Notes under the pieces: model-generated
What the model was told of the DNA's origin: nothing
The model's input: only the letters and a program-made list of their open reading frames with translations
Database searches by the model: none
Shown here: piece by piece, positions 1 to 61,280 of the stretch
Numbering within the stretch: position 1 is the stretch's first letter
How the letters are laid out: each line of letters starts with the position of its first letter
Assembly (NCBI GenBank): GCA_000091205.1
Contig: AP006498.2
Reading direction: 5' to 3' (one strand)
From: Cyanidioschyzon merolae
Taxonomy: Eukaryota
DNA length: 64,000 nucleotides
Program-made: the position numbers and the translations under genes

Positions 1-733
1 CACTTAAGAAGCAAGATGCGTCGAGGCTTGGACGAATGAACGGGATGAGGTTATCGTTTATTTTACGAACGCTCGCTCGAAGGCAAAGGGAATCCTCTCT
101 ACTCTTGTCAAATAACGAACTTCCGCGGCAAACTGTCGAAAAGGGCCACTCCGGAAACACCACCGTGAATCCTAAAACGACGCATGAGTCCACGAGCACC
201 TATTGCCGCAATTAGAAAGCAGTGGCTGTATATCTCAAAATGTTAGAAAACATATCAAAAGGCAGGGACGGAGCGAACGGTTCAGTGTTCCGTTTTAAGC
301 TGACACGGCGATATGTCGCTGGGTCAAACCTCAGCTCGCGACCAGAAGACTGCACGGGAGCCCCTGAGACGGACAGGCGTCTGCTGGAGCACGACGGTCT
401 CGTTACGTGCCTTCGACAGCGCCAAGGCATCGCTGCCATCTGGTCAGCTTCGTCGATCTAATACCAAAAAGAGACAGCGACACTGATTCCATACATGTTT
501 GCCTTCTCATGCACCCGTGCGGATACAATAACGCTGTAGTGCATCTGCCTTGCGTATACGTGGCAGGCACAAAAGTCTCAGCGCCGCTTCCAGCGCGCTG
601 TAATGTGTGGTGGCTGTTGCGTCGCCCGTCGTCGGTGGCGGTCGATCCCGCAGCCGCTATCTCGCGGTCAAGCGAATGCTAAGCCTGGACCTTGTAGGAG
701 CGTGGCGTCGTTTTTTCAAGTGAGGGAACGCGT

Positions 734-3070
734 TTGATGAGCTGGAATAGTGAGCGACGCGAGATCACATACGATTCCAGGTCGCTGCGCATTAACGGTA
801 AGCCGTTCTTCTGCCTCTCGGGGGCAGTGCACTATGTGCGTTCGCATCCGTCCGCTTGGCCGCAGATCTTCCGCTGCATGCGACGGGATGGGCTAAACAC
901 CGTAGAGACATATGTTTTCTGGGGTGATCATGAGTTTGAGCCTCCAGAGATGCCTGACGCGGAGCCGCGAGCAGACTTTAGTGGACCGCGCGACCTCGTG
1001 CGCTTCCTCCGCTGCGCAAAGTTGCACGGTTTAAACGCGATCCTCCGGCTGGGCCCCTATGTATGTGCGGAAGTGAATTATGGAGGCTTTCCATGGTGGT
1101 TACGCCAAGTATGTGAAAAGGGTAGCTCCAAGCCGGTGCGCTTTCGAACCTGGGATCCAGCGTACTGCGCGCAGGTGGAACGCTGGCTCAAGTATCTCGT
1201 GGATCATGTGCTGAAACCTGCACGAGTTTTCGCTCCGCAAGGCGGGCCCGTGATCTTGGCACAGATCGAAAATGAATACGCCATGATCGCCGAGAGCTAC
1301 GGCCCTGATGGTCAGCAATACCTCGACTGGATCGCCTCGTTGGCGAACCAACTGGCGCTCGGTGTCCCGCTGGTTATGTGCTACGGCGCCAGCCAGCGAG
1401 AGTCTGGACGCGTCATCGAGACCATCAATGCTTTTTATGCACATGAGCATGTGGAGTCGTTAAGGCGTGCTCAGGGGGCGAATCCGCAACCACTACTGTG
1501 GACAGAATGTTGGACCGGCTGGTACGACGTCTGGGGAGCGCCGCATCATCGACGCGACGCGGCAGACCTCGCGTACGCCGTGCTGCGCTTTTTGGCCGCA
1601 GGCGGTGCAGGCATTAACTACTACATGTACTTTGGAGGTACCAATTGGCGCCGGGAGAACACCATGTACTTGCAGGCTACCTCCTATGACTATGATGCGC
1701 CACTGAATGAGTATGTCATGGAGACGACCAAGAGCCGCCATCTGCGACGATTGCACGAAAGCATTCAACCTTTCCTAAGCGACCGCGATGGTGTTCTAGA
1801 TATGAGCCGCTTGGAGCTAAAGGTGTTCGAGGGCGAACGCCGCGCCATCCTCTATGAACGATCAACGGTTTCAGGTGATGCGGATCACAGGTCGGAAGAA
1901 AGTGTTCGGTGTGTATTTGACTCGGCCGACATTCGCGTGCACCTCGCTCTGGAGCTGCGGGAGATTATCGTGAACGCTGCGAGTAGGGATACCGGCCAAG
2001 ACCTCCGGTGGCGGATGCTCCCCGAGCCACCACCGCTGCGAGCAGCCCTATCCGATACATCGGCTACGCTGGCTACGATACCGGATCTTGTGGACGCTAC
2101 AGCGGGCACAAGCGACTATGCCTGGTACATACTGCGATGCCCTACAGCGCAAGGCAGCGGTCTACTACAATTAGAGGTCGCCGATTTCGGGCGAGTATGG
2201 AGGCGGAAAGCGGTCGATCAAGGCGACGACGCGGAGCGGCAGCCACTCGAGTGGGCCGCCGCCGGCCCAGAGCCGCCAGTAGAGGATCGCTTTCCGAACG
2301 CATGGAATTCCACGGAGTACGGGTACGGTATTGTAGAGGTCGGTGCGATCGACTGTCACGAGGAATATGTCGTGCTGGTGAGCTCTCTCGGCATGGTAAA
2401 GGGCGACTGGCAACTGCCACCGGGATACGGCATGGCTCGTGAACGCAAAGGCCTTCTCCGGGCATCGTACCGCTCCGATGTCACCTTCGCAGATGACGAG
2501 TGGCGGGATGCGCTCGTTGTTGGCTTCGCTGCCGGTCTCCGCGGAGAGCGCATTCGGAGTGTCATAGAGGGCGACGCAGACGCGTATCCGTATCTGTGGA
2601 CACCTCAGAAAGCCGCGCTCAGCGGCAGGCGATTCTCTTGGCCGCGCTGGTATCGCGCATCGCTAGCGATACCCCCGCCAAACGCTGATGAAACCGAGGG
2701 CATCATTTTAGACCTCTATGAAAGCGGCGTTGAAAAAGGATGGATCTATATGAACGGAGAACCGTGCGGGCGCCACTGGCGAGTTCACGGAACTATGCCG
2801 AAAAACGGTTTTCTTCGACAGGGCGACCAGGAGGCACCGATTGAGCAAGTGGGCCATGGCCAGCCGACGCAGCGGTATTTTTATATACCGCCGTGGCATT
2901 TGCATGCCAAGGGACGCCCTTCCACACTCGTCATATTCGATGAACACGCAAATGGCGAGTACCGGGAGTTCGAACCGCATCGCCTGCGCGTATACCGCGC
3001 TGTGCTCCGCGTTGTCGAGTCGACGCCCACATCCGATAACGAGAGCAAGTCTGAAGCGTTTATCGTCTGA
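734..3070 (+). CDS. Glycoside hydrolase family 35 beta-galactosidase
   Basis: 778-aa uninterrupted ORF. The N-terminus matches the GH35 consensus ('ITYDSRSLRINGKPFFCLSGAVHYVRS', 'NTVETYVFWGDHE', 'ILRLGPYVCAEVNYGGFPWWL'). 'QIENEY' is the catalytic acid/base motif and 'PLLWTECWTGWYD' the nucleophile region. No signal peptide is visible. Confidence 0.85.
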   Translation: MMSWNSERREITYDSRSLRINGKPFFCLSGAVHYVRSHPSAWPQIFRCMRRDGLNTVETYVFWGDHEFEPPEMPDAEPRADFSGPRDLVRFLRCAKLHGLNAILRLGPYVCAEVNYGGFPWWLRQVCEKGSSKPVRFRTWDPAYCAQVERWLKYLVDHVLKPARVFAPQGGPVILAQIENEYAMIAESYGPDGQQYLDWIASLANQLALGVPLVMCYGASQRESGRVIETINAFYAHEHVESLRRAQGANPQPLLWTECWTGWYDVWGAPHHRRDAADLAYAVLRFLAAGGAGINYYMYFGGTNWRRENTMYLQATSYDYDAPLNEYVMETTKSRHLRRLHESIQPFLSDRDGVLDMSRLELKVFEGERRAILYERSTVSGDADHRSEESVRCVFDSADIRVHLALELREIIVNAASRDTGQDLRWRMLPEPPPLRAALSDTSATLATIPDLVDATAGTSDYAWYILRCPTAQGSGLLQLEVADFGRVWRRKAVDQGDDAERQPLEWAAAGPEPPVEDRFPNAWNSTEYGYGIVEVGAIDCHEEYVVLVSSLGMVKGDWQLPPGYGMARERKGLLRASYRSDVTFADDEWRDALVVGFAAGLRGERIRSVIEGDADAYPYLWTPQKAALSGRRFSWPRWYRASLAIPPPNADETEGIILDLYESGVEKGWIYMNGEPCGRHWRVHGTMPKNGFLRQGDQEAPIEQVGHGQPTQRYFYIPPWHLHAKGRPSTLVIFDEHANGEYREFEPHRLRVYRAVLRVVESTPTSDNESKSEAFIV

Positions 3071-3980
3071 TAGGTACGCACGGGCGTAGGGCTTGTCCGT
3101 GTGTTGGATTGATCATGCTTTGCCATGACATCCACGGAGATATCGCACGATCGTCCATACGGAACCCTGGGATAGAAGCAGAGTTGTTGAGGACTGGATG
3201 TTCGTTGCGGGCAGCGCATGCAAGATTGCAAAGAAAGGTTCACGTCCAGTGCCCAGAGCCGCTCCGGTCTCGCACGGAAATGCGTCGCATGGGAGTCGAC
3301 CAATTGGATAAACAGTCGTCCGATCGTTACGAGTACTTTGCGCGTCCGAACGCGTTCAACGGAAGAAGCACAGAAGGCCCCGAAGTATGCTACGCAAGTC
3401 GCGGCTGGGACTTGACGGAAACAGGCTAAACCTTTACCAGGTCCCGCCAGGGAAGCGCACTCTAGTGCACCGAGATGAACCAATGAAAATAGGTGTTCGG
3501 GCTCTGCCTGTAACACGTTTTTTACACGAGTCCAAGAGCAACACGTTGACCTGTACGAGCGGCAAACGCAGGTACGGGACTTTGATGACTCTCGCCGCAG
3601 CCCGCATCGCACTGATACGAACACAGACGCACGCTGTTCCCGACTTGCATCGCCCAGACGGATTCACTGCCTGTATGGAAGCGGCCAGGGCGATAACGTC
3701 GACCGCCTCACATTGAAGCGCAAGGCTGCTAGTGCATTCACGCATTCGCGCCATCCCAAGTCATGTTGAGCGCTTGTCGAAGCGTGTCGATACGCACGTT
3801 CCCTGCCAACCAATGCGGTAGCTGCGGGAGCACCGGCGTGGCGGCACATGGCACGCTCGGTGCGCTGCATCGATACCAAGGCCGCACCGCGGCGCTGTCC
3901 ATATCGAGAACGACTTGCAGCCGAGCTGACCAACACTGCAAGCAACGAGAGGCTAGCGTGTCCTCCGGAGGATGCTTTTC

Positions 3981-6428: not shown

Positions 6429-7220
6429 TTACGACGGCTTCCACTTGATACTACATCCGATGCTCGGCAGTTGATTTTCCGGAGGTGACTGTCCATTCAC
6501 GCATAACTGGATGGCGTTCCGGAGGTCCTCACCTGTCACAGGAATATCGTTTCCGGGTCTACTGCCGTCCAAACGCCCCCTATAGAACAGCTTGCGCTCG
6601 TGATCCAGAAGGTAAAAGTCGGGCGTGCACGCGGCTTTCCAGCCACGAGCAACATCCTGTGTTTCATCGTAGAGAATCGGAAACTGATAGCGACGCGTTT
6701 TGATTTCCTCCGCCATACGCTCCGGTGCGTCGTCCGGGTGTGTTCCGACAAAGTTACTGCTGATGCCAACCATTTTCACCGGGCCAAACTTTCCAGAACT
6801 AATATCTGCACTCAACCGAGAGAGCTCGCCAGCAATGTGCTTCACAAAAGGACAGTGCGCAGCCAAGAACACCACAACGAGGGCTTTCGGCGGCGGACTG
6901 TCCGCGTAGAGCGAATCGAGAGACACGATTTCTCCTGTAGTTACGTCGGGTAAAGCAAACGCCGGCATAACCGTGCCGAGTTCAACCATAGCAGACTCCG
7001 TACGAACCATTTGAAGCTGTTGAAACGTGCTTCTAGCAGACGGCAAGCGCGTACCCCGGCTGACTCGTCGCGCAGTGCGAGCTTCGCTCCGCACAGACGC
7101 TGTTCGTCGTCCCCGAACAAGGCCTTGGCTCACTGGCCTTGTCGTCGTAAGCCTAGGTGCTAGCAAGAACCCCAAGTATCCCTTGACGCATGCAGTGGCT
7201 CGCATGCGCTCCAGTTGCAA
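6429..7220 (-). CDS. Thioredoxin-fold redoxin (AhpC/TSA-redoxin family) with presequence-like N-terminus
   Basis: Thioredoxin-fold motifs 'KALVVVFLAAHCPFVKH' and 'TPDFYLLDHERKLFYRGRLD'. The first ~70 codons are Arg/Ser/Thr-rich and the ORF's first 60 bp overlap the end of the TnpB-like ORF. The true start may be the internal Met at about 7010 ('MVRTESAMVELG'). Confidence 0.6.
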   Translation of the reverse strand: MQLERMRATACVKGYLGFLLAPRLTTTRPVSQGLVRGRRTASVRSEARTARRVSRGTRLPSARSTFQQLQMVRTESAMVELGTVMPAFALPDVTTGEIVSLDSLYADSPPPKALVVVFLAAHCPFVKHIAGELSRLSADISSGKFGPVKMVGISSNFVGTHPDDAPERMAEEIKTRRYQFPILYDETQDVARGWKAACTPDFYLLDHERKLFYRGRLDGSRPGNDIPVTGEDLRNAIQLCVNGQSPPENQLPSIGCSIKWKPS

Positions 7221-7690
7221 ATGCTTCTGGCGGCACAGTCGAGACGCTGCGGTCGGCAGTACAGTAGTGGCGAGAAACCCGCCGTAAACACGACGTCTGC
7301 CACTGACGTGCAGACGCCTCCCAGCCTTTCTCGACCGGCACCCACTACTGCTTCCAACTTCTTCTCATATAATTCCACTTTTAGAGGTTGTCCAATAAAG
7401 TTCACTCTTGTGGACCTTCGGGGTCTTTTCTCGAGCACTGCAGATCTTACATTGATCGCAGCATTGAAGTCACGATTCACAAACTCAATCCGTTTCTTTC
7501 CGTTGGTTGTACGTACTAATGCAAGTAGTCCACGAACTTTCGCCATCTTTTTCATTTGCTCTTCCGTCAGCGGTCCGTATTTTTTTATATCCTCAGGGTT
7601 CCGCTGACACTTTTCCATCTCCACTCTCTGAAGTGTACAACCCAGTTCATGGTGTGTATAAGACGTTCGAAACTCATCTATCGGTATCAT
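7160..7690 (-). CDS. TnpB/Fanzor C-terminal segment (TS-x-x-C zinc-finger region + RuvC-III 'RDxNAAxN')
   Basis: 'IDEFRTSYTHHELGCTLQRVEMEKC...KRIEFVNRDFNAAINVRSAVL'. The tail 'LKVELYEKKLEAVVGAG' aligns with the relic at 60957-61280 ('LRLEVCAEKLKPIAGG'). Confidence 0.7.
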   Translation of the reverse strand: MIPIDEFRTSYTHHELGCTLQRVEMEKCQRNPEDIKKYGPLTEEQMKKMAKVRGLLALVRTTNGKKRIEFVNRDFNAAINVRSAVLEKRPRRSTRVNFIGQPLKVELYEKKLEAVVGAGRERLGGVCTSVADVVFTAGFSPLLYCRPQRLDCAARSICNWSACEPLHASRDTWGSC

Positions 7691-20088: not shown

Positions 20089-22017
20089 ATGCGAAGCAGG
20101 TACTGCTTTTTGTTGTCAAGCACGCCCTGTAAGTACGCTGGGCAGCGTAGTCCGTTCCCTGCCAGCGCATTAGCGGGCGTATGTGCCGGAGGGCGGCTCC
20201 GCAACGTTACGCGCAACCTTCGGCCGGGGCTCCGTACTTTGCGTGCCTCAGCTGAAACAGAGCATTCGCAAGGCACCCGCCAAGCACAGTATGACTTTAT
20301 CATCGTTGGCGCTGGTGCGGCCGGCTGCGTGCTCGCTAACCGCCTATCAACGGCCCAGTTCAGCAATGGAGACCGCCGGTATCCCCGTGTACTCCTGCTG
20401 GAAGCAGGTGACGCACTCGCGGAGGCGCCGTACTTCGAGCACATTCCCCTTGGATTTCCTCAGCTGATCGGAAGCCGCCTCGACTATGGCTTTTTTTCAC
20501 GCGAGAATCCTACCCATTTGGGTGGTCGTGGAGCAGTCTACCTTCCGCGAGGTCGCGGCGAGGGAGGCTCCCATGCGATCTCGGTGATGTTGGTGCATCG
20601 TGGCTCGCGTCACGACTATGAAACGTGGGTGAAAGATTACGAGGCTCTCGGATGGGGGCCGGATGACGTCCTCCCGTACTTCAAACGGCTGGAATCGAAT
20701 GAAAGAACAGCGCAGCGGGGCGCCGACGGGGAGGCAGCGACGGCGCTGCACGGCTCGGACGGACCGCTCCGAGTGTCGGACCAGCGCTCTCCGAACCCGC
20801 TGTCGTTAGCGTTCATTGAAGCATGTCTCGAACGCGGTATCCGGCGCAACAAAGACTTTAATGATTGGGACCATGGTCAAGAGGGCGCCGGTCTCTTCCA
20901 GGTCACCCAGCGAGACGGCCGGCGCGAAAGCCCAGCGACTGCCTATCTGCAACCGGTGCGGTCGCGCCGAAACTTGCACATTGAGACGAATGCACTCGCT
21001 GAACACCTCGTCTGGTCCAAGGACGGTCGTCGCGTCGAGGGTATTCGTTTCATTGATCGACATGGGCGCCGACGTGCAGCGCTCGCGCACTGCGAGGTGA
21101 TTCTTGCGGCGGGTGCTATTAACACGCCCCAGTTGCTGATGCTCTCCGGATTAGGTCCGGGTGCACATTTACAAGACTTTGGCATACCCGTGGTGCGAGA
21201 CCTTCCCGGGGTAGGCCAGAACCTCCAGGATCATGCGGCAGTGATGCTTTCGTACTACGCCCCGGATCCTTATGGTAAGGATCGGGACAAGAAGCGCATA
21301 TTCTACACCGAGCGCCTAGGAAAAGATCCACTGGTACTTGCCGAGTACTTTTTGCTAGGAAGAGGGCCCTTGACCTCGCCTGTGTGCGAGGCCGGTGCTT
21401 TTGTTCACACGCAGGCGGTGATCGGCGAGCCCAGCTGTGATCTGCAGCTTCGCTTTGTGCCGTTTTTCTCCGATGCAGATCCGTACAAGAGCCTCGGCGA
21501 ATATCGCAGTGGAGGTCATGTGCTAACGAATACCAGCATTCGTCCAGCAGGTTTTGGTTTGCAGGCTGTTGCGATCCGCCCGCGGAGTCGTGGTCGGATC
21601 GAGCTTGCGACGATCGACCCACGAGCACGCCCCATTATCCACACTGGATGGCTAGAGGACAAGCGAGACCTGCAGACCCTGCTCTCGGGACTGAAGCTGG
21701 GCCGAGAGATTCTCTCCGGCGACTCGATGCGCCCCTATCGTGGGCGAGAAGCATTCCCAGAAACGTTAGAGGACGATCTCGTGACCTACATCCGCCGCAC
21801 GTGCCATACAGCGAATGCGATCGTTGGCACGGCACGTATGGGAACAGGGCGCGATGCGGTTGTCGACCCTGAGCTTCGTGTCCACGGTGTTGAGCGACTG
21901 CGGGTAATCGATGCCTCTGTCATGCCGAAAATTATTGGCGGCCAGACGGGGGTTCCGACGATGATGATCGCCGAGCGTGGTGCTGATTTGGTGAAAAAGA
22001 CTTGGAAACTGGTGTAA
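20089..22017 (+). CDS. GMC-family FAD oxidoreductase (choline dehydrogenase-like)
   Basis: Rossmann 'YDFIIVGAGAAGCVLANRLS'. GMC signature 1 region 'GRGEGGSHAISVMLVHRG'. C-terminal signature 'ASVMPKIIGGQTGVPTMMIAERGADLV'. Presequence-like N-terminus. Confidence 0.85.
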   Translation: MRSRYCFLLSSTPCKYAGQRSPFPASALAGVCAGGRLRNVTRNLRPGLRTLRASAETEHSQGTRQAQYDFIIVGAGAAGCVLANRLSTAQFSNGDRRYPRVLLLEAGDALAEAPYFEHIPLGFPQLIGSRLDYGFFSRENPTHLGGRGAVYLPRGRGEGGSHAISVMLVHRGSRHDYETWVKDYEALGWGPDDVLPYFKRLESNERTAQRGADGEAATALHGSDGPLRVSDQRSPNPLSLAFIEACLERGIRRNKDFNDWDHGQEGAGLFQVTQRDGRRESPATAYLQPVRSRRNLHIETNALAEHLVWSKDGRRVEGIRFIDRHGRRRAALAHCEVILAAGAINTPQLLMLSGLGPGAHLQDFGIPVVRDLPGVGQNLQDHAAVMLSYYAPDPYGKDRDKKRIFYTERLGKDPLVLAEYFLLGRGPLTSPVCEAGAFVHTQAVIGEPSCDLQLRFVPFFSDADPYKSLGEYRSGGHVLTNTSIRPAGFGLQAVAIRPRSRGRIELATIDPRARPIIHTGWLEDKRDLQTLLSGLKLGREILSGDSMRPYRGREAFPETLEDDLVTYIRRTCHTANAIVGTARMGTGRDAVVDPELRVHGVERLRVIDASVMPKIIGGQTGVPTMMIAERGADLVKKTWKLV

Positions 22018-22635: not shown

Positions 22636-22986
22636 TCAATCCAGCGGCTGTTTGGATATCGTACGCGGCGAGCGCAATCGCTGTGGTGTCGATACCATCA
22701 CCGCCATTTTCGCGAATATATTTTTTGGGACTGAACGTCGTCTGATATTGAGGGCTACGTTGAAGTCTCGGCTGATGAACTCCCTGGGTTTATTGTCTCT
22801 GATGGAACTCACCAGTACATGGAGTTCCCCAATTGGTGCGCGCTGAGCGAATTGGCACCCTGTTAGCGCTTCGTGCTTTTCCATGGCCCAGGCGCTCCGC
22901 TGGCTTTTCTCCATCTCGACCTTCTGAAGTGTACACCCGAGTTCATCCCATAGCTTTTTTATTTCTTCAAATGAACACGCTTGCAC
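22636..22986 (-). pseudogene. Relic C-terminal fragment of a Fanzor/TnpB-like gene (TS/zinc-finger region + RuvC-III)
   Basis: 'ELGCTLQKVEMEKSQ...REFISRDFNVALNIRR' parallels 'ELGCTLQRVEMEKCQ...RIEFVNRDFNAAINVRS' of the 7160-7690 copy. No upstream RuvC-I/II ORFs are present, and a lower-GC ORF-free patch lies at 22990-23800. Confidence 0.55.
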
Positions 22987-24036
22987 ATGACCTCAGGTGA
23001 GGACATTCGCTGAGCCGGCAAGACTTGTGGGATGAAGACGAAATGTGCCCCGGTGTGTCACCGTGTGCTGAACGCTTCAGCGATTCCTCCAGTGGAGCGT
23101 TCATACCGTTTTAAGATGGAAAACGCTCCTTTGATGCGGTTGAACCGCAGAACATACAAAGGAATGAAAAGCAGCTCTATCCCGATAGATCAGGCAAAAG
23201 CTCCAACGCGTAGGGAATGGTGCAGTACCACGTCGTCTAATAGACGGACATCACCAGACGTCAGCGGACAGTCTTCAATGTTTCGACAAAGTCATTGGTG
23301 CTGTTGTCTGTGAACTCTCTACGAGCGAAACTGAGGTAGCCAAATGAATCCACTGCAGTTAGAACATTTAATGACGTCTTAGCTCTCCTCGAGTTCAATC
23401 GCGCACACAACGGGCTCCCTCTCCGCGAATACCAATATACGCTCCGGCCGTTTTATTCGAAGGACGTCTGATCGGCTGAAAAGAACAAACCGACATCCCT
23501 GTACTCTATACAGATCGCAACCTTCCAGGAACATAGTCGTTCTGATTTCCATGGAAGATGGCTGTGCTTGAACTAGGACCCTTTTTTAAGACTCTCTCCC
23601 ACAGGTTTCAGCACCACGAGAATGAGCTATTCAGAAACAGAGAGGCCCGTGGTTGCTAATATCGTCGCTTTGGCTTTCCGCAAGTTGATCAACGGGTCGT
23701 TTTCTACCGTTGACTTCAAGCAGTTACCGAGAATACCGGTGTTTGACGCAGAGCGCATCTACTTGTTTCTTTCAGTATTCCTCAACCATCTGAGTACTGC
23801 GACGTGACTGACCTAAACCAGAAACGCAGTCCTCCCTCAACTGTTCAGTGAAGAATAGATCCTACAGGCATTCTTCTACGATCTATTTTCGGTATATTGC
23901 ATCGTGGTGTCGATCTCCGGCGCACCAGCGTAGCCCCTGTGGAACAGAACTGAGTTGAAGGCCACCAGCGGCACGTGCTGCGATCGCACTGCCCGCCTGC
24001 ACGCGCTGGAGCTCGGCGATCCACATCTGGAAGAAC

Positions 24037-24900
24037 ATGTTTCCGCTCGTGATGCAGCGGCAACTCCTTGAGGCGAATATGGCACACGGTTTATCTTTTT
24101 GCTTTGTAGCAGCGTTTGGTTCGGGTAAAACACGCACCTGGAGGCAACAGCAGCTCGACCAGCGGTGCCGACCTCAGCACCGGAGACCGCAGTTGGCAGT
24201 GACGGCGACGCTGCTTGAACGTGAGCTGATTGCAGGGTCTGCTCGCGGAGCTGCCCTGGAAACCTTCAAACTCTTTTTCCGGTGCCAGCCGGGGCGTTGG
24301 CGCTCAGAACGTTGCTACTTTTATCGAGAGACCGCGGATGTTGCCGACAGGGGCGGAGAAAGCGTGGAACGCTCGGAAACGCTGTTCCAAGTCGAGCCAC
24401 TGACGGCGGAAACGACCACCAAGGTGCTGCGGGACAACGGAACGGACGAGTCGAAACTTATCAGCGAAGGTTTCCATTCGTTGGAATACGCTGCTGGGTT
24501 TAAAGTCTCGTTTAATACGAGAATGGAGCACAGCGGTGATGTAAGCGCGAGCACGAATTTACTTTTCGTTCCGCAGGTGCTGGACGTGCAGCTCGCTCGA
24601 CAACTAGGTCTCGTGCGTGGCCTCTATTTCCGCGACAAGGGTTACGAAGAAGACCGGCCGATTGTTGGTCAGTTCGAGTTTCATGTCACGACGCGTGAAC
24701 TTGTAATGGTGACGGCTTACGCGCGTACAGTTAGTGTTGATCGCATTCTACTTTGCAGTGAGCGCCAGAGACTGCGACAAATCGCCAACTATCGCCGGCC
24801 AGAGGCGTGGCAGAGGGACGCTCCCTTGGATCGGAACCGGTCGTTGTTGACGGAAGTGCGTCTCCTTGGTGCCGGTATCGAAGACCGACTGCCAGACTAA
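24037..24900 (+). CDS. Hypothetical protein
   Basis: 287-aa ORF with no recognisable motif. Confidence 0.3.
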   Translation: MFPLVMQRQLLEANMAHGLSFCFVAAFGSGKTRTWRQQQLDQRCRPQHRRPQLAVTATLLERELIAGSARGAALETFKLFFRCQPGRWRSERCYFYRETADVADRGGESVERSETLFQVEPLTAETTTKVLRDNGTDESKLISEGFHSLEYAAGFKVSFNTRMEHSGDVSASTNLLFVPQVLDVQLARQLGLVRGLYFRDKGYEEDRPIVGQFEFHVTTRELVMVTAYARTVSVDRILLCSERQRLRQIANYRRPEAWQRDAPLDRNRSLLTEVRLLGAGIEDRLPD

Positions 24901-33802: not shown

Positions 33803-34302
33803 AACATGAGGGCAAAACGCTCAGATGCGCATGGAATTCTCGCCGGGACGTCCAGGCGAGCTCTGATCGCTGCGGCCTTCCAGATCAATCTGGTGGCGAT
33901 GCGAAGTCGCTGCAGCGCACGCGCACACTGCACCTTCTAGGCGGAAGGGTTGCGTCGGAGACGCGATGCGCCAGCGGGGAATCGCGCCGACGCTCTCCGC
34001 GGGATACCAAGGGCGCTCTGCCTCTGTGGTGGATCCGCATTGGCGATTTAGGCACCGTTGCGGATGCCTGTGGCAGGCTCTCGACGCACGATGGAATGTG
34101 ACGAATAACCAGTGCCTCCGAGCTGCAAAGGATGGGTACTGGAACTTGGACATAGGAGCGTGGAACGATGGCTGCTTCACCGTTCGCTGATATCAAGCGC
34201 GCAATCAGAAAGGCCCGGCCGCTGTGCGTGTGTGTCAACGTTCTTTCAAACAAGAATGACCGCGCCCTGTATTCGCGCAAAACGATCGCAGTTTGGTTAT
34301 AG

Positions 34303-38956: not shown

Positions 38957-40290
38957 GCTTTGGTCACTTCCCACTGTGACCAACGCCAGGTTTTTCGAAC
39001 CTTCTCTGAGACTGCTTCGTTTTCCCCCCGCCTGAGTCCGGATAGAAAAACGCGGGCGTCTCCTTTCCCTGTACAACCGTTGTTAGCAGTCGAAAGATAT
39101 TCACGGCAGCTTCCGGGTCCCGGCTTCGATGCTTCCAGCTGCTATCCATGCAATGGTTGCACCGACGGTAGTTGCGTTGAACGCCTCGCTTGCCGTCTCC
39201 ACCTTGTTTCTATGCAACTTCGGTGTACCCTCGGCAACGGTGCCACTTGACTGTGAGCAGGTGTTCTCGAGTGTCCGCCACCACACCCATTCAGAGCGCC
39301 TCGCCATGCCACGTGAGCAACGCTCGCTTCACCGCTCGCTGTACGCTCTGGACGAGTACAGAAGGCTCCCGTGGGTGCCTCTTCCGTGTCTGCAGCCCAG
39401 TGCAGTGGCCCGTGACCATGGGCTCGTTCGAGGTAGTGCCCTCGCCGAGTACTCGCTCTGGTGCACATGCCGGCGCACGCCGTTCTGCTGGACACTAGAA
39501 CTTTGGATCGCGGAGTTCCCGATGACGGAGCAAGGACCGCATGGAAAAGCCAGGCTGGTGAGGAGGCCGTCCAGTCTCGATGCGTCTACGCTCCCTTCGC
39601 GCTACGCGGTGACGCATCGTGTAATGGAAGCGACCGCTGCGGTGATTCGAGGTCTAGTCCATGACCCTTTTGAATGCAGAGAGAAGAGCGGGGAGCCTCT
39701 CGGTGCATGTGCTGTGAACGTTATCAGACTGTTGCCAGGGTCCATATTGTCGACGACCACAAAGGCGGGCGGCTTTGTCATTCGAAAGGCATCGATTATT
39801 TGTCGTGACAAGTGCAGTGAAGCGTAGGCATGAGCTTGTGAACAGGTCGCCAAGCGACGATATCGAGTGTATTTCCCCGTCAGCCCAGCGGTGCGAATTG
39901 TTGCACCCACGAGTTGCCTCGGAACAGAGCGATCGCCATCTCGAAGAATGGATGATTAGAGCATGTCAGGCGTACACCGGGCGGAGCCGCTGGAAGCTTG
40001 TTGGCGTGATTGGATGCAGCAATTGGTTATTGTATGAATCCTCTTTCGAGGGCGTGGCATGTTGTCTTGGTTCCAATGAAGTACGGAATTCCGGCTTCGG
40101 TGCGTCGGAGCATAGGAGCATCGAAGGAAAGAGTCGTTCTGGAAACACGACTGAGCATCCCAGCACTACGTATGCATCCATAAACCCGTATTGCTGCATT
40201 TCGTATCCCAATGCTGTGCTTCTCAAAAAAAAAAGTCCAGAAAGATCGCTTACGAGAAACGGAGCGGGCCGTTCAGCGTGCCATTTTAAT
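38957..40290. repeat. Left arm (~1.33 kb) of a near-identical inverted repeat flanking the O-methyltransferase gene
   Basis: ORFs 39129-39827 (+) and 39775-40341 (+) reappear reverse-complemented at 42452-42904 (-) and 41992-42504 (-) with ~98-99% amino-acid identity. Junctions map to 'ggtcacttcccactgtgacc' (outer) and 'gccattttaat' (inner). Confidence 0.85.
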
Positions 40291-40575: not shown

Positions 40576-41607
40576 GTGCTTGCTCAAGGCCAAAGGTCTT
40601 CAAGAGAGCCCCAGATGGTTTTTCTCGAAAAGCTCGACGACTTGCTCAAAGGATATGCGCCTGCTCGTGTTGTTATGACTGGATTCGAGCTCGGTGTCTT
40701 TACGATGATCGCTGAAGGAAAGACTACTGCGGAGGAGGTAGCCCGTGCTGCAGCGTCTTCGACCCGCGGGATGCGCATGCTTCTGGACGCTTTGACTAGT
40801 CTGGAGCTCCTGCAAAAACACAATGATCGCTACCAGCTGGTGCCGGGATCCGAGGCAGCGCTTGTGAAAAGCAGTCCTCAGTACATCGGTTCTATGTGGG
40901 AGACGAACCACCTGTGGAGCGCGTGGAGCGCGCTCACCCAAGTTGTGCGTACAGGCAAGCCCTACACTCGCCTCGAAACCGAGAGCGACGCAGCGCGCTT
41001 TTTCCCTATGCTGATCCGCAGTCTACACGTTTACAACTTGGAGCCAGCCCGTAAACTCGCCGGGCTTCTGTTACCATCACAGATACCACCAGACAGTCGT
41101 GTTCTCGATGTTGCCTGTGGAAGTGCCGTCTGGAGTATCCCTTTCGCGGAAGCGTCTTCAGAGGTACGACTTGATCTCCTTGATTTCGGGGATGCGCTTG
41201 CTGTGGCACGGAGCTATGTTGAACGGCATAAGGTGGATGCCCAGGTTTCGTACATCCAAGGGGACTTGAAACATACAGACTTGGAGAATGATCGATATCA
41301 TCTTATTATTCTCGGGAATATCGTTCATTCGGAAGGGGCAGCCTCATCTCGGGATCTCATTCAACGTTGTGCACGGGCGCTACGCTCAGGCGGCAAGCTC
41401 GCCATTATTGACCTGTTTCCGAATGAGGAGCGCACTGGACCGCCACGGGCAGTTCTCTTCGCCCTTAATATGCTTATTAACACTAGCGAAGGTGACGTTT
41501 TCAGTGTATCCGAGTATAACCAATGGTTCGAGGATGCAGGTTTGAGTGAAGGCACTCTAGTGCAACTGGGATCCACAACTACAGCGCTGCTGGCGGCTAA
41601 ACCCTGA
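40576..41607 (+). CDS. Class I SAM-dependent O-methyltransferase (Methyltransf_2 type with N-terminal dimerisation/winged-helix domain), bacterial secondary-metabolism-like
   Basis: N-terminal dimerisation-like region ('VVMTGFELGVFTMIAEGKTTAEEVA...MRMLLDALTSLELL'). SAM motif I 'RVLDVACGSAVWS'. Motif II 'HLIILGNIVHSEG'. Post-II 'LRSGGKLAIIDLF'. Confidence 0.75.
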   Translation: MLAQGQRSSREPQMVFLEKLDDLLKGYAPARVVMTGFELGVFTMIAEGKTTAEEVARAAASSTRGMRMLLDALTSLELLQKHNDRYQLVPGSEAALVKSSPQYIGSMWETNHLWSAWSALTQVVRTGKPYTRLETESDAARFFPMLIRSLHVYNLEPARKLAGLLLPSQIPPDSRVLDVACGSAVWSIPFAEASSEVRLDLLDFGDALAVARSYVERHKVDAQVSYIQGDLKHTDLENDRYHLIILGNIVHSEGAASSRDLIQRCARALRSGGKLAIIDLFPNEERTGPPRAVLFALNMLINTSEGDVFSVSEYNQWFEDAGLSEGTLVQLGSTTTALLAAKP

Positions 41608-41990: not shown

Positions 41991-43316
41991 ATTAAAATGG
42001 CACGCTGAACGGCCCGCTCCGTTTCTCGTAAGCGATCTTTCTGGACTTTTTTTTGAGAAGCACAGCATTGGGATACGAAATGCAGCAATACGGGTTTATG
42101 GATGCATACGTAGTGCTGGGATGCTCAGTCGTGTTTCCAGAACGACTCTTTCCTTCGATGCTCCTATGCTCCGACGCACCGAAGCCGGAATTCCGTACAT
42201 CATCGGAACCAAGACAACATGCCACGCCCTCGAAAGAGGATTCATACAATAACCAATCGCTGCATCCAATCACGCCAACAAGCTTCCAGCGGCTCCGCCC
42301 GGTGTACGCCTGACATGCTCTAATCATGCATTCTTCGAGATGGCGATCGCTCTGTTCCGAGGCAACTCGTGGGTGCAACAATTCGCACCGCTGGGCTGAC
42401 GGGGAAATACACTCGATATCGTCGCTTGGCGACCTGTTCACAAGCTCATGCCTACGCTTCACTGCACTTGTCACGACAAATAATCGATGCCTTTCGAATG
42501 ACAAAGCCGCCCGCCTTTGTGGTCGTCGACAATATGGAACCTGGCAACAGTCTGATAACGTTCACAGCACATGCACCGAGAGGCTCCCCGCTCTTCTCCC
42601 TGCATTCAAAAGGGTCATGGACTAGACCTCGAATCACCGCAGCGGTCGCTTCCATTACACGATGCGTCACCGCGTAGCGCGAAGGGAGCGTAGACGCATC
42701 GAGACTGGACGGCCTCCTCACCAGCCTGGCTTTTCCATGCGGTCCTTGCTCCGTCATCGGGAACTCCGCGATCCAAAGTTCTAGTGTCCAGCAGAACGGC
42801 GTGCGCCGGCATGTGCACCAGAGCGAGTACTCGGCGAGGGCACTACCTCGAACGAGCCCGTGGTCACGGGCCACTGCACTGGGCTGCAGACCCGGAAGAG
42901 GCACCCACGGGAGCCTTCTCTACTCGTCCAGAGCGTACAGCGAGCGGTGAAGCGAGCGTTGCTCACGTGGCATAGCGAGGCGCTCTGAATAGGTGTGGTG
43001 GCGGACACTCGAGAACACCTGCTCACAGTCAAGTGGCACCGTTGCCGAGGGTACACCGAAGTTGCATAGAAACAAGGTGGAGACGGCAAGCGAGGCGTTC
43101 AACGCAACTACCGTCGGTGCAGCCATTGCATGGATAGCAGCTGGAAGCATCGAAGCCGGGACCCGGAAGCTGCCGTGAATATCTTTCGACTGCTGACAAC
43201 GGTTGTACAGGGAAAGGAGACGCCCGCGTTTTTCTATCCGGACTCAGGCGGGGGAAAACGAAGCAGTCTCAGAGAAGGTTCGAAAAACCTGACGTTGGTC
43301 ACAGTGGGAAGTGACC
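41991..43316. repeat. Right arm (~1.33 kb) of the inverted repeat flanking the O-methyltransferase gene
   Basis: Reverse complement of 38957-40290. Identical ORF pairs (e.g. 39461-39664 equals 42615-42818 at 67/67 aa). Confidence 0.85.
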
Positions 43317-48075: not shown

Positions 48076-51000
48076 CGCTCGTAAGCCGGTACACCCGGGA
48101 GCACTGAATATCGGAATGCCTGCACCGCCACACCCGTTTTTATTTTGTTTGTTTGTTTTTCTTGCAGGTATTCAACATAAGCGGTTTATTGTGTGGATTG
48201 AGGCAAAGTTGCTGGGAGAATTTATGCTAGCGTTCATAGCTTGGGAACAACCGCCTTACTTGGACGAAGTCAGTCGAGATTCGGTCAGCAGCTGAATGAA
48301 CCAATCCACCACCAGTACGTATTCTGAACATCGTGCATCCAAAACAGCACAAGTCAAACGCTATCAAGATGCATATATCCTGGTGAATCCATCATGCTAC
48401 GTACATTGTTTGCGCAATATTATCAAAGACGCTACAGAAAGTAACTTATCCGTGCCTTTGATACAAACGTGGATGAAGAGATACGGATGGACAGCGGAAA
48501 GCCCGCGCTGCGATTCGAGACGCTCGCGCACCCAATCACGGACAATCACGTTCGGTACCGAAACGCGAACGCTTCCTACATGAGCGACCGGATTTCGTGT
48601 CAGTCGCCAAGACTTCATTCAGCAGCTGTGGTAGACCTGTATATGAGCACGCTATGGCGGGCAAACCGCTTCCTGGAAGAAGAGACATGCGAGCATGACG
48701 ACAATATCAGCCCTGGCGGCGATGCTCTTGCCTGGTCGCCTACGAATCGTAACACGGACATGATCGTCCAGTGGGCCATGCTTCGTCGGACCACGTTCCG
48801 TGGCTTCTTCTTCTCACATTTTTCTGCCCGTCTCGTAGATAACGTCACTATCCATCACGCCAGTGCGGTTCCGGAGCATGTATCAGGCAGTAGCACTGAG
48901 CTGCTCTTCGTGTGAGTCTGTTCGTCCTGGTGCAATGCAGCCGAGTGCGTCTTCTCTGTTCTAGAACTGTCTTTTTTCCACTCGCCAATCAATAGACTAG
49001 TCGTTCGCATCCATGGCGCGGAAAGATGCAGGACGTCACAGAGGTTCACATAACAACGGATTCGAACAATGCTCGCCTGGTTTCATTCGCCTTGAAGCAT
49101 CCCATCAAGTATCTGTTCGTACGAGTCCCGGACGCAGGGCAACCGGGCGTCCATATTTCTCTGGAGTTTTTCCATCAGGAATTCGTGTGACAACGCAAGG
49201 GATGCTCAGTGCAGGGGATTCCATGCGGACTGATCCTAAGGATAGAGACATGCACACACGCTTCCTAAAATACTCGGACGCGTCTCCGTGCCATCTCGGG
49301 AATGGAAACGTCTCTAGAGCAGGTGCCAAAGAGTATGAAACGATCCTCAGAATCCAAAACAATTTGCGGGCCAACGTCGAGCGCTCCATGGTGCACATCC
49401 TGTGGACGTTGTACTGTTTTGTTGCCTCACTTTACTGGCCCAGAGAAACAGAAACGGATGGGATAGGTTCCTGAAGTCTGGACCGGAGCAAGTGACAAGC
49501 TGCTGGTGACGGAGCAGCTGGAGCTGCAAGCAAGTTCGGAGCACATGTCGTACCGAGAGCGAGAATCGCCTCTGTTCTGACAAGCTCATCGTGTTGAGCC
49601 CGGACTCGGTTCGACAGACGTCGTATGCAAAGCACGGCTGAAACCTAGTTTCTGCCTTTCTTCATGTTGCGCTACTACGTTTTCGTGAACAGATCCCTAC
49701 ACAGCAAAGCAGATATGCCCTCCGAATCGGAACGAGCTGACCGTTTGATGCGCCCCTGCCACGCAGTCCACATACACCTCATGAAAGCGCATGAAATTGC
49801 CCTAGACATTTGCGTAGTGTGCTTCATGGCCTTCTCGGTGCGCTACGCATACTCTCGGCGAACGCGTATTAAGCATTCGCACTACCTTGCGAGGAGCATT
49901 GGCGGGGCTCGTTCATGATTAACCGTTTGCAGGGAGGATATGGACAGAGGTTCATAGGATCCATAAAAACCTACGGACCATCAGTCTCACTGCACGCTGT
50001 GAAACCCAGGCATGAGTCGAGCAGCGAAACGTACTTTCATTTGTTCAATGTAGACGAAGAGAAAGATAAGGCAGCGGGCATGGGTCCCGGTTTCAAGAGT
50101 ATCGTGGCCATTGCGGCAGCTCTGTGCCAAGACGACAGCGCCAAAGATCCGAAAGCACATGAAGGTGGTTGGCTTTGTCAGGCTGAAGCACGATCGGCAT
50201 TCATGCATGATAGACGCCAGGAGGCACACCAGCAAGCGGAATGACTTCATCAGCGCTTGCCTCAACGCTCTGAGCAATGAATCGGGCGGCGAGGGAGTTC
50301 TCTCTACACCTCTTTCTGAGAGAATAAGCGCGTCGAAACTGCTCTCGCGAAAGATCTTTTGTGCGATTACGTGAGATACCCGCGAGATTTGCCAACGGTT
50401 TCGGCTGCACGGAGCCTAGAGACAGGCATTCGCCGAGTTTTCCAGTCAGCTGCAAAAGGAAATGACCGATCAATCGCGTCGTTTGGTGCTAGCCTATGCC
50501 GCTGGACATGCTGCAGCGTACAATAGCTGCACTGGTGCTCCTTCGACAAGCGCGCGCACCAAGTACAGGAATCGACTCTGAACGAGTACCGTCAATGATT
50601 TCACGACGATTTAGGCGCATCACGACCACGGGTGTACACCAAAAACCTGCATAGAAGAAGAGAGTGAAACAGAGCCGCATCCGCCGGGTTGTGTAGGCAA
50701 GTTGAACTAACGTCGGTTAGGGAAGCAATCAAAGGTGCAAGTCGTGCTTTGGTACGCCTCCGCAAGCAACCATGCCCGCGAGCATGCTCTGCACGGAGAC
50801 TTGAAAGCCTGGATCAACATCCGGAAATATTTCGTGGATCTGAAGCATTCAGCGGCATTGTTTGGAGCAAACTTGTCACGAGAATATTGAGTACTCTTTG
50901 TTCGCATCATGCTGAAATACGGAAGACTTTCGCTGAGATGAAAACAGCACCCAGTCTACGAAGCATTGGATTCCAGCCCAGAAGAAGGCACAGGACCGGA

Positions 51001-60268: not shown

Positions 60269-60898
60269 GAGCATCCGCGCGATCGACGATGACTGCTGAG
60301 CACTCAGCGATGCCTAGGTCAGACTTGTCTCAAATGCAAGTCTTTCACCTCAATTGTGTTCCACAGCTAGGCGCTTGTCATGAACTGCTTTTTCGCGGTT
60401 TATAGGCGACGCCTTCCAAATGCGTCCATTTGATGACATGAAAAGGCTAAGGGGAAGGTATGGACATGCAGGAGGGGGTTTCGAGGGACCGATGTTGCCG
60501 TGTGCTGGGAGAAGTACGAAAAATATCCCCTTTTCACGGACTATCAAGCAAAGAAGAGCAAGTGACGTAGAAGAGTACGAAAAGAGCATCCGCGCGATCG
60601 ACGATGACTGATGAGCACTCAGCGATGCCTAGGTCAGACTTGTCTCAAATGCAAGTCTTTCACCTCAATTGTGTTCCACAGCTAGGCGCTTGTCATGAAC
60701 TGCTTTTTCGCGGTTTATAGGCGACGCCTTCCAAATGCGTCCATTTGATGACATGAAAAGGCTAAGGGGAAGGTATGGACATGCAGGAGGGGGTTTCGAG
60801 GGACCGATGTTGCCGTGTGCTGGGTGAAGTACGAAAAATATCCCCTTTTCACGGACTATCAAGCAAAGAAGAGCAAGTGACGTAGAAGAGTACGAAGA
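60269..60898. repeat. Tandem duplication, 315-bp unit x2 (near-identical)
   Basis: 'gagcatccgcgcgatcgacgatgactg(c/a)tgagcactcagcgatgcctaggtcagacttgtctcaaatgcaag...' starts at 60269 and again at 60584. It generates twin ORFs 60350-60589 (-) and 60665-61096 (-) sharing a 60-aa C-terminus. Confidence 0.85.
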
Positions 60899-60956
60899 AA
60901 GAGAGTGGAGATAGACGAGGAAGGTTTTCGTCCCACGAGCCAATGACGGGGCTGTA

Positions 60957-61280
60957 ATGGCACAAAGGACAAGCGTTCGAGGAATCCTTACAGAGGTGAA
61001 TCGAATCAGCTGCACTGCATACATGAAATTCGTAAAACGAGACTTCAAAGCCGCCATCAATGTCAGACGATGTCTGGTACTGAAGACGAGACCCACTGAG
61101 CTGAACCGAGAGAACTTCTTGAGGCGTCAGCTCAGACTCGAAGTTTGCGCGGAGAAACTGAAACCAATAGCAGGCGGCCGGTCCAAAAAGCAGGCAGACC
61201 TCTGCGAAAGGATGCGCGTATACAACCTACGTGATCGCGAGCTGCTCTTCTTTTTGCCGACCATAGATAAGATTCGGTGA
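60957..61280 (+). pseudogene. Relic C-terminal fragment of a Fanzor/TnpB-like gene (RuvC-III 'RDFKAAINVRR' + tail)
   Basis: 'KFVKRDFKAAINVRRC...LRLEVCAEKLKPIAGGRSKK' aligns with the 7160-7690 copy ('EFVNRDFNAAINVRS...LKVELYEKKLEAVVGAGRER'). Its stop codon (61278-61280) coincides with the inner boundary of the right inverted-repeat arm. Confidence 0.55.

Follow-up and report, generated by a model that had tools for sequence, protein, structure and literature searches.

The closest described system is CMe-1A, a repeat of the red alga Cyanidioschyzon merolae with some 150 copies that each stand at around 80% identity to a consensus of 3169 bp (Bao & Jurka 2013, Mob DNA 4:12, PMC3627910). CMe-1A encodes a 734-aa Fanzor1 protein, has no TIRs and no determinable TSDs, and was entered as 'classification unknown'; its 5' end is made of sequence derived from TE-N2_CMe, and no transposase is listed for it (PMC3627910). 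In PUl-1 of Pythium ultimum (Bao & Jurka 2013), as in the composite elements considered below, a mariner-type transposase of about 300 aa is followed by a Fanzor1, within a total of about 3.2-3.6 kb. For the protein itself, solved nuclease structures are available, including SpuFz1 (8GKH), PpFz1 (9CF0), and GtFz1 (9CER). The CMe-1 family matches these in sequence, in fold, and in the RuvC D/E/D triad, whereas the identity is only 11-16%, the C4 zinc ribbon of the CMe-1 clade is degenerate, and the relic described here retains only about 70 residues of the fold.

The window, by which the whole stretch of 64,000 nucleotides analyzed is meant, is nuclear DNA from chromosome 16 of C. merolae 10D, an intron-poor red alga, and has a GC content of 55% (mean 0.552). 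Seven of its long ORFs are identical to annotated 10D proteins, such as CMP080C, MIR1, a 'probable dehydrogenase' (20089-22017), and CMP089C. The relic sits in an unannotated spacer, with the dehydrogenase gene on one side and a CpeS-like gene (24037-24900) on the other, and is most probably a copy of a composite DNA transposon that is dead, has an internal deletion, and is truncated at its 3' end; it extends from 22742 to about 23980 on the minus strand. It shares with CMe-1A the genome and the Fanzor1 protein family, and the published description of CMe-1A fits the copies in the window. It differs in being 72% identical to the consensus, in having a DDE_3 transposase gene as its 5' part, and in having lost almost the whole Fanzor ORF together with the 3' end.

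Fanzor1 assignment of the CMe-1 family

The sequence-only reading of this DNA had recognized two copies of the family, whereas the window holds four. Besides the relic, these are a full 3.2-kb CMe-1A copy (10457-7244, minus strand; copy 1) and a deletion derivative (60339-61205, plus strand), both delimited with the CMe-1A consensus, and a decayed composite of transposase and Fanzor1 (48296-50887, plus strand), delimited with profile HMMs. The same reading had held that the family was active and then decayed, and this agrees with the roughly 150 CMe-1A copies standing at about 80% identity to their consensus (Bao & Jurka 2013, PMC3627910). Copy 1 is a near-complete pseudogene that covers CMe-1A positions 1-3152 at 84-86% identity and has a GC of 0.486; its reconstructed translation has about 50 close homologs in hot-spring metagenomes and distant ones in Haematococcus. 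The copy at 60339-61205 is of the CMe-1A type and contains consensus 789-882, which immediately precedes the ORF, twice (60339-60431 and 60654-60746), as a tandem duplication of about 315 bp, and 3' of this duplication lies a segment with the C-terminus of Fanzor and some of the 3' end (61023-61205; consensus 2901-3084).

An exhaustive HMMER search yielded 3481 relatives, from which a 73-sequence alignment was taken (profile A5), and the D/E/D triad is invariant across this alignment (D398, E569, and D636). Against the PDB, profile A5 matched PpFz1 (E = 4.7e-22), SpuFz1 (E = 3.2e-15), and GtFz1 (E = 1.2e-12), which establishes homology to Fanzor1. Zero PDB matches were obtained with the window ORFs (phmmer) or with a 15-sequence profile (A1), and only the 73-sequence profile reached Fanzor1. 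Single sequences and shallow family profiles likewise found nothing in Pfam, and PF07282 (Cas12f1-like TNB domain) was reached by 17 of the 73 members. An AF2 model of the family member P0047, built on the 73-sequence alignment, has a pLDDT of 90.0 and a pTM of 0.87, an earlier run on 25 sequences (pLDDT 43.9) having been discarded. When this model was compared with the PDB by Foldseek, the top seven matches were all Fanzor1 (E = 1.8e-17 to 6e-15) and Cas12 proteins came next; the match to SpuFz (E = 1.8e-17, TM 0.63-0.72) places P0047, the one member modeled, within the Fanzor/TnpB/Cas12 fold. Profile searches and predicted structure together indicate that the family is Fanzor1, an assignment that holds for the family as a whole. 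It should be noted that the CMe-1 protein reads THHELGC...EKC with no CxxC pair, and the C4 motif, as defined by Bao & Jurka (2013), is absent from it.

In addition, some 130 nt of non-coding sequence at the 3' end are strongly conserved in the family (window 7244-7400, minus strand, and the 3' ends of L001-L082, where L denotes a locus). This stretch is more conserved than would be expected of neutral sequence in copies that are about 80% identical. Its features are a hairpin of the form GGCG-(variable loop)-CGCC and the terminal sequence CGCCACTACTGTAC, beyond which there is often a further palindrome of ~40 nt; RNAalifold gave the stretch a weak fold (-6.5 kcal/mol) with zero covariation. 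In characterized systems, Fanzor guide RNAs derive from the 3' region. The conserved stretch is a candidate guide-RNA scaffold or transposon end.

Two observations concern the surroundings of these copies. The 3' end of copy 1 and its read-through ORF (7160-7690) overlap, over 7160-7220 and on the same strand, the start of an AhpC/TSA-family ORF (6429-7220, TTG start), and the gene itself probably begins further downstream. A fragment standing alone at 33982-34206 (minus strand) has 70% identity to CMe-1A 36-254, positions held by a part of CMe-1A that has been equated with the separate repeat TE-N2_CMe (Bao & Jurka 2013, PMC3627910).

The Fanzor1 fragment and the patch upstream of it

The ORF at 22636-22986 (minus strand, 116 aa), taken from the letters alone for a relic of the TnpB/Fanzor-like family, is present and does carry a Fanzor1 C-terminal fragment, which blastn, profile HMM, and blastp delimit at 22742-22946 (minus strand). 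This fragment corresponds to positions 604-676 of the 703 in the family profile HMM (E = 9e-12), and window 22946-22742 is 71.8% identical to CMe-1A consensus 2737-2944 over 209 bp (blastn, E = 3e-23). The start of the ORF had also been likened to the copy at 7160-7690, rightly so: ELGCTLQKVEMEKSQRS in the relic and ELGCTLQRVEMEKCQRN in the 7160-7690 ORF (minus strand) are identical at 14 of 17 residues, and residues 15-82 of the relic ORF are 47% identical to that ORF over 68 aa (blastp, E = 8e-18). Extended nucleotide homology to copy 1, the result against which the earlier reading was to be judged, was not found, the similarity being confined to 86 bp at 75.6% (22862-22946 vs 7566-7650), or about 40 codons.

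The content of the fragment is the segment between RuvC-II and RuvC-III together with the RuvC-III motif RDFNVALNI, which in the relic reads SRDFNVALNIRR; RuvC-I, RuvC-II, and all N-terminal domains are missing. Since RuvC-III (RDFN) alone is kept from the RuvC triad, the locus is a gene fragment and not a Fanzor1 gene. The 'C-terminal zinc-finger and RuvC-III' part that had been ascribed to the ORF is accordingly to be halved: RuvC-III stands, and the zinc finger does not, direct reading having found two family-derived cysteines (ELGC and LTGC) and zero CxxC pairs. The limits of the ORF, 22636-22986 on the minus strand, are those of an accidental frame, as judged from the junction alignments described below and from the family homology, which stops near 22742-22727. 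Its first ~13 codons, read from a GTG, belong to the tail of the transposase gene and to the spacer between transposase and Fanzor, codons ~14-83 are the Fanzor fragment, and the last ~33 codons are unrelated DNA past the 3' truncation. A protein database search with the 116-aa ORF returned a sole match, P0064, which is the same locus in another strain. The ORF thus appears, from its composition, to be a chance frame crossing the junction.

Upstream of the ORF in gene orientation, the DNA is indeed low in GC and poor in open frames, as had been remarked: its GC is 0.489 vs a window mean of 0.552, within the lowest 3% of 1035-bp windows, and its longest stop-free stretch is 99 aa vs a median of 171 aa in windows of the same size. 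Comparison with 80 metagenome loci carrying family members revealed that 22946 to ~23960 belongs to a repeat of about 1 kb that is dispersed among loci, with 70-72% identity in L020, L033/L034, L050, L063, and L066; because the flanking genes of these copies differ, the loci are not orthologous. A consensus of the patch (positions 7-1044) matches window 23980-22946 at 84.7%.

Most of this patch is occupied by a decayed transposase gene of about 290 codons (22985-23858, minus strand), delimited with Pfam DDE_3 and with an HMM of homologs. A Pfam scan of individual window ORFs gave nothing useful. The window copy of the gene alone scores 23.4 bits (E = 6e-5) against DDE_3 (PF13358), below the gathering cut-off of 28.6; a consensus stitched from six copies clears the same cut-off by a wide margin, with 69.6 bits (E = 3.4e-19), and belongs to DDE_3. 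The catalytic residues of the consensus are D (SVDETSF), D (LLLDNV), and E (FNRIEGAF), with about 35 residues from the second D to the E, and its N-terminus gives weak HTH matches. It is 35-39% identical, over 99% of its length, to intact transposases of 295-301 aa (37% over the full length), and its alignment with the mariner transposase of PUl-1 (E = 1e-8) takes in all three catalytic motifs, D, D, and E. An HMM of the intact homologs (positions 29-275) matches five colinear fragments of the window, from 23812 to 23061.

In the window copy, the motifs FFSADQTSF, LLDDVVLHH, and ELLFIPLY..FNRIKGAFSILK can be followed on the minus strand in almost one frame. The first two catalytic residues are kept (D1 in SADQTSF and D2 in LLDDVV), and the third has changed from E to K (FNRIKGAF); the ATG is lost, and there are several in-frame stops and at least two frameshifts. 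With D, D, and K in place of intact D, D, and E/D residues, together with the stops and frameshifts, the copy is a pseudogene. All these comparisons identify the patch as a decayed DDE transposase gene of the IS630/Tc1-mariner type, which shares its strand with the Fanzor1 fragment. The 5' non-coding end of the repeat unit follows at 23859-23980 (minus strand), an approximate boundary, with homology starting between 23960 and 23980.

The earlier interpretation of the patch as eroded element sequence therefore holds as far as its transposon origin is concerned and fails for RuvC-I/II of the same gene, what stands there being the decayed gene of a DDE_3 transposase. That 22990-23800 would be the N-terminal part of the same Fanzor gene (RuvC-I/II and so forth), eroded in place, is left with next to no probability. 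The GC of the patch (0.489) is close to that of copy 1 (0.486), and the patch immediately precedes the fragment in the same orientation, as this explanation would have it; a profile HMM search with --max and E up to 10, however, finds zero Fanzor segments in the patch, the patch is colinear with the DDE_3 transposase (HMM positions 29-275), and the junction maps to the Fanzor start codon. Remnants of RuvC-I/II upstream, for which a tblastn search had been suggested, were likewise not found, either by tblastn with copy-1 peptides or by the --max profile scan of 22990-24000. Eroded RuvC-I/II coding sequence as the nature of the patch is accordingly refuted by the profile scan, the DDE_3 consensus, the junction, and the colinear transposase HMM.

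Elsewhere in the window, weak DDE_3-like remnants (E = 0.004), including 'FVVVDNM', are found in each arm of a pair of 1.29 kb inverted repeats (39001-40290 and 41991-43277, 98.8% identical) that stand around an O-methyltransferase ORF (40576-41607). The arms may stem from a recent inverted duplication, or the whole may be organized in the manner of a composite transposon.

Deletion junction, 3' truncation, and present state

The deletion junction, at 22946-22953 (minus strand), was located by alignment with full-length L050, L001, and copy 1, and with the L020 relic. The homology of the patch includes the spacer and reaches as far as the region of the Fanzor start codon (…AAAAAAGCTATGG), from where it jumps to GATGAACTCGGGTGT…, such that the start-codon region AAGCTATGG abuts the H-E-L-G-C codons GATGAACTCGGGTGT. 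The two parental sequences have microhomology at this point (ATGGA vs ATGAA). What is missing are CMe-1A positions ~910-2736, which amount to about 1.8 kb of the Fanzor ORF (codons ~2-610), and the junction falls just past the RuvC-II motif DEFRTS, which is itself lost. As this alignment shows, the Fanzor body was lost by a clean internal deletion and not by erosion.

The L020 relic, from a metagenome, has the same junction with the same microhomology, is only about 70% identical overall, and lies among unrelated flanking genes, a synteny comparison of the window with L020 having given zero flanking protein matches. Because the same junction recurs at an unrelated locus, the deletion derivative, which is effectively transposase-only, would have been copied after the deletion; the common junction could instead reflect segmental duplication rather than transposition. 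L034 and L066 have independent junctions of the same general kind, and the CMe-1A-type fragment at window 60339-61205 also carries a different junction of this kind.

Towards the 3' end, no family copy is homologous to the relic beyond ~22742-22727, and an nhmmer scan of the window located the conserved 3' end only at copy 1 and at 61108-61205. As the conserved 3' non-coding end of the family is absent from the relic, this copy is 3'-truncated by about 225 bp. The 116-aa ORF is without RuvC-I, RuvC-II, the REC and WED domains, and the 3' region that is the source of guide RNA, and nothing at the locus is predicted to be able to act today.

On its 5' side, the relic ends about 57 bp short of the start codon of the CpeS-like gene (24037-24900; interval 23980-24037), which is divergently oriented, so that the immediate upstream DNA of that gene is transposon-derived. 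The sequence might have been co-opted, with the 116-aa ORF serving as a small RuvC-III-derived protein or the locus serving as upstream regulatory DNA of the CpeS-like gene. In keeping with such a role, the locus is 98.9% identical with zero indels in a second strain (metagenome locus L002), a JGI gene call (P0064) covers part of the ORF, and the CpeS-like gene adjoins the 5' end of the relic. Co-option is nonetheless very unlikely, given that the ORF begins at a GTG in the spacer and finishes in unrelated sequence, that two of its three catalytic motifs are missing, and that its single database protein match is itself the same locus; the 11 differences between the window and L002 are, moreover, scattered along the contig and too few for a selection test.

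Composite relatives and the history of the element

The patch of L050 passes without interruption into a Fanzor ORF of full length, which shares 83-88% identity with CMe-1A from consensus position 869 on, and in L063 and L034 the patch likewise continues into the start of the Fanzor ORF. CMe-1A 869-950, comprising the spacer and the ATG region, is 70% identical to the patch consensus, and in the relic variant the transposase stands in place of the 5' 868 bp of CMe-1A. Most CMe-1A copies, copy 1 included, have TE-N2_CMe sequence 5' of the ORF and not a transposase. When a collapsed transposase remnant was sought just 5' of the CMe-1A ORF, alternative alignments were equally weak and 4 of 500 shuffles reached the observed score; a 255-aa ORF upstream of the Fanzor gene of L001 had zero Pfam matches. 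On these comparisons, a divergent sister variant of CMe-1A is the description that suits the relic best.

TIRs with a flanking TA are a hallmark of the Tc1/mariner-IS630 superfamily. Intact pairs of a transposase gene followed by Fanzor1 are found at L083, L084-86, and L087-89. In L083 (from NCBI) and L084-86 (from ENA and Logan), the two genes are on the same strand, with a spacer of 38-41 bp and a Fanzor1 of 639-652 aa. L083 (GCA_013573075.1, JACCEA011053193.1, 491-3681) is an apparently intact mariner-type element of 3.19 kb, in which a spacer of 38 bp separates a DDE_3 transposase (301 aa) from a Fanzor1 of the CMe-1 clade (652 aa; E = 1e-228 against the family profile), and its ends are 29-nt TIRs, 83% complementary, with TA on both sides, in which it resembles PUl-1. 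Outside the C. merolae-type copies, the nearest relative is P0048, which in three contigs is likewise preceded by a DDE_3 gene. The window itself contains a second decayed composite (48296-50887, plus strand), in which transposase remnants (48296-48912, HMM positions 39-242) lie directly 5' of a Fanzor1 that is full-length and badly eroded (48996-50887, HMM positions 62-673 in six fragments).

Unlike PUl-1, the copies of the C. merolae lineage have no recognizable TIRs or TA duplications, and every transposase copy of this lineage seen here is a pseudogene. A repeat search for TIRs and TA duplications found none in the window copy, L020, L034, or L050, the conserved 3' terminal motif was never found inverted at the 5' end in 80 loci, and shuffle-controlled local alignments of inverted ends were not significant for the C. 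merolae-lineage copies. As neither feature is seen in these copies, we infer DDE-type cut-and-paste from their architecture and from the intact relatives.

That no TIRs define the unit, and that a transposase is missing from most CMe-1A copies (PMC3627910), would also fit a nested or adjacent insertion, in which an independent mariner/IS630-like element hit an older Fanzor1 element and wrecked its 5' part, the two never having been one unit. Such an event would not account for the patch being unbroken into the spacer and the Fanzor ATG in L050, L063, and L034, for a spacing of about 40 bp that is the same as in intact transposase-Fanzor1 pairs of unrelated sources, or for the window copy retaining the spacer and the ATG region up to the junction, and we regard it as improbable.

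For the composite element, the following history is proposed. The ancestral order, reconstructed from the intact relatives, would have been a short 5' end, an IS630/Tc1-mariner DDE transposase of about 295 aa, a spacer of about 40 bp, a Fanzor1 of about 700 aa, and then the conserved 3' non-coding end. The transposase would have carried out cut-and-paste, with Fanzor1, an RNA-guided TnpB/Cas12-like nuclease, as cargo. A microhomology-mediated deletion, to which the junction alignment attests, then removed Fanzor codons ~2 to ~610 and left the transposase gene fused to the last ~70 Fanzor codons. This 'transposase-only' derivative would have been copied to at least one other locus, as the junction common with L020 suggests, and the window copy later lost its last ~225 bp and gained stops, frameshifts, and the E-to-K change at the third catalytic residue.

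A broader proposal can be made only tentatively, and we consider it rather doubtful: that the CMe-1 family arose from a Tc1-mariner/IS630-type transposon, that Fanzor-less derivatives keeping the transposase stayed mobile, and that the last ~200-430 bp of the Fanzor ORF were kept by at least four independent internal deletions (window/L020, L034, L066, and 60.3-61.2 kb). If this were true, the repeated retention would point to a 3' terminal region that is cis-acting for propagation, as a transposon end or as a guide-RNA template.

The relic itself is an ordinary dead fragment of a transposon family already published in 2013, and for annotation it should be treated as a pseudogenized transposon fragment and not be named a gene. 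As a small data point on the dispensability of Fanzor1 for its host transposon, the composites illustrate that an element can lose its Fanzor cargo and still keep the transposase module. What is modestly new is confined to a likely classification, by which the 'unclassified' CMe-1/CMe-1A is linked to mariner-type Fanzor1 carriers: the composites, decayed in the C. merolae lineage and intact and bounded by TIRs and TA elsewhere, tie CMe-1A to the mariner-type carriers known from oomycetes and algal viruses.
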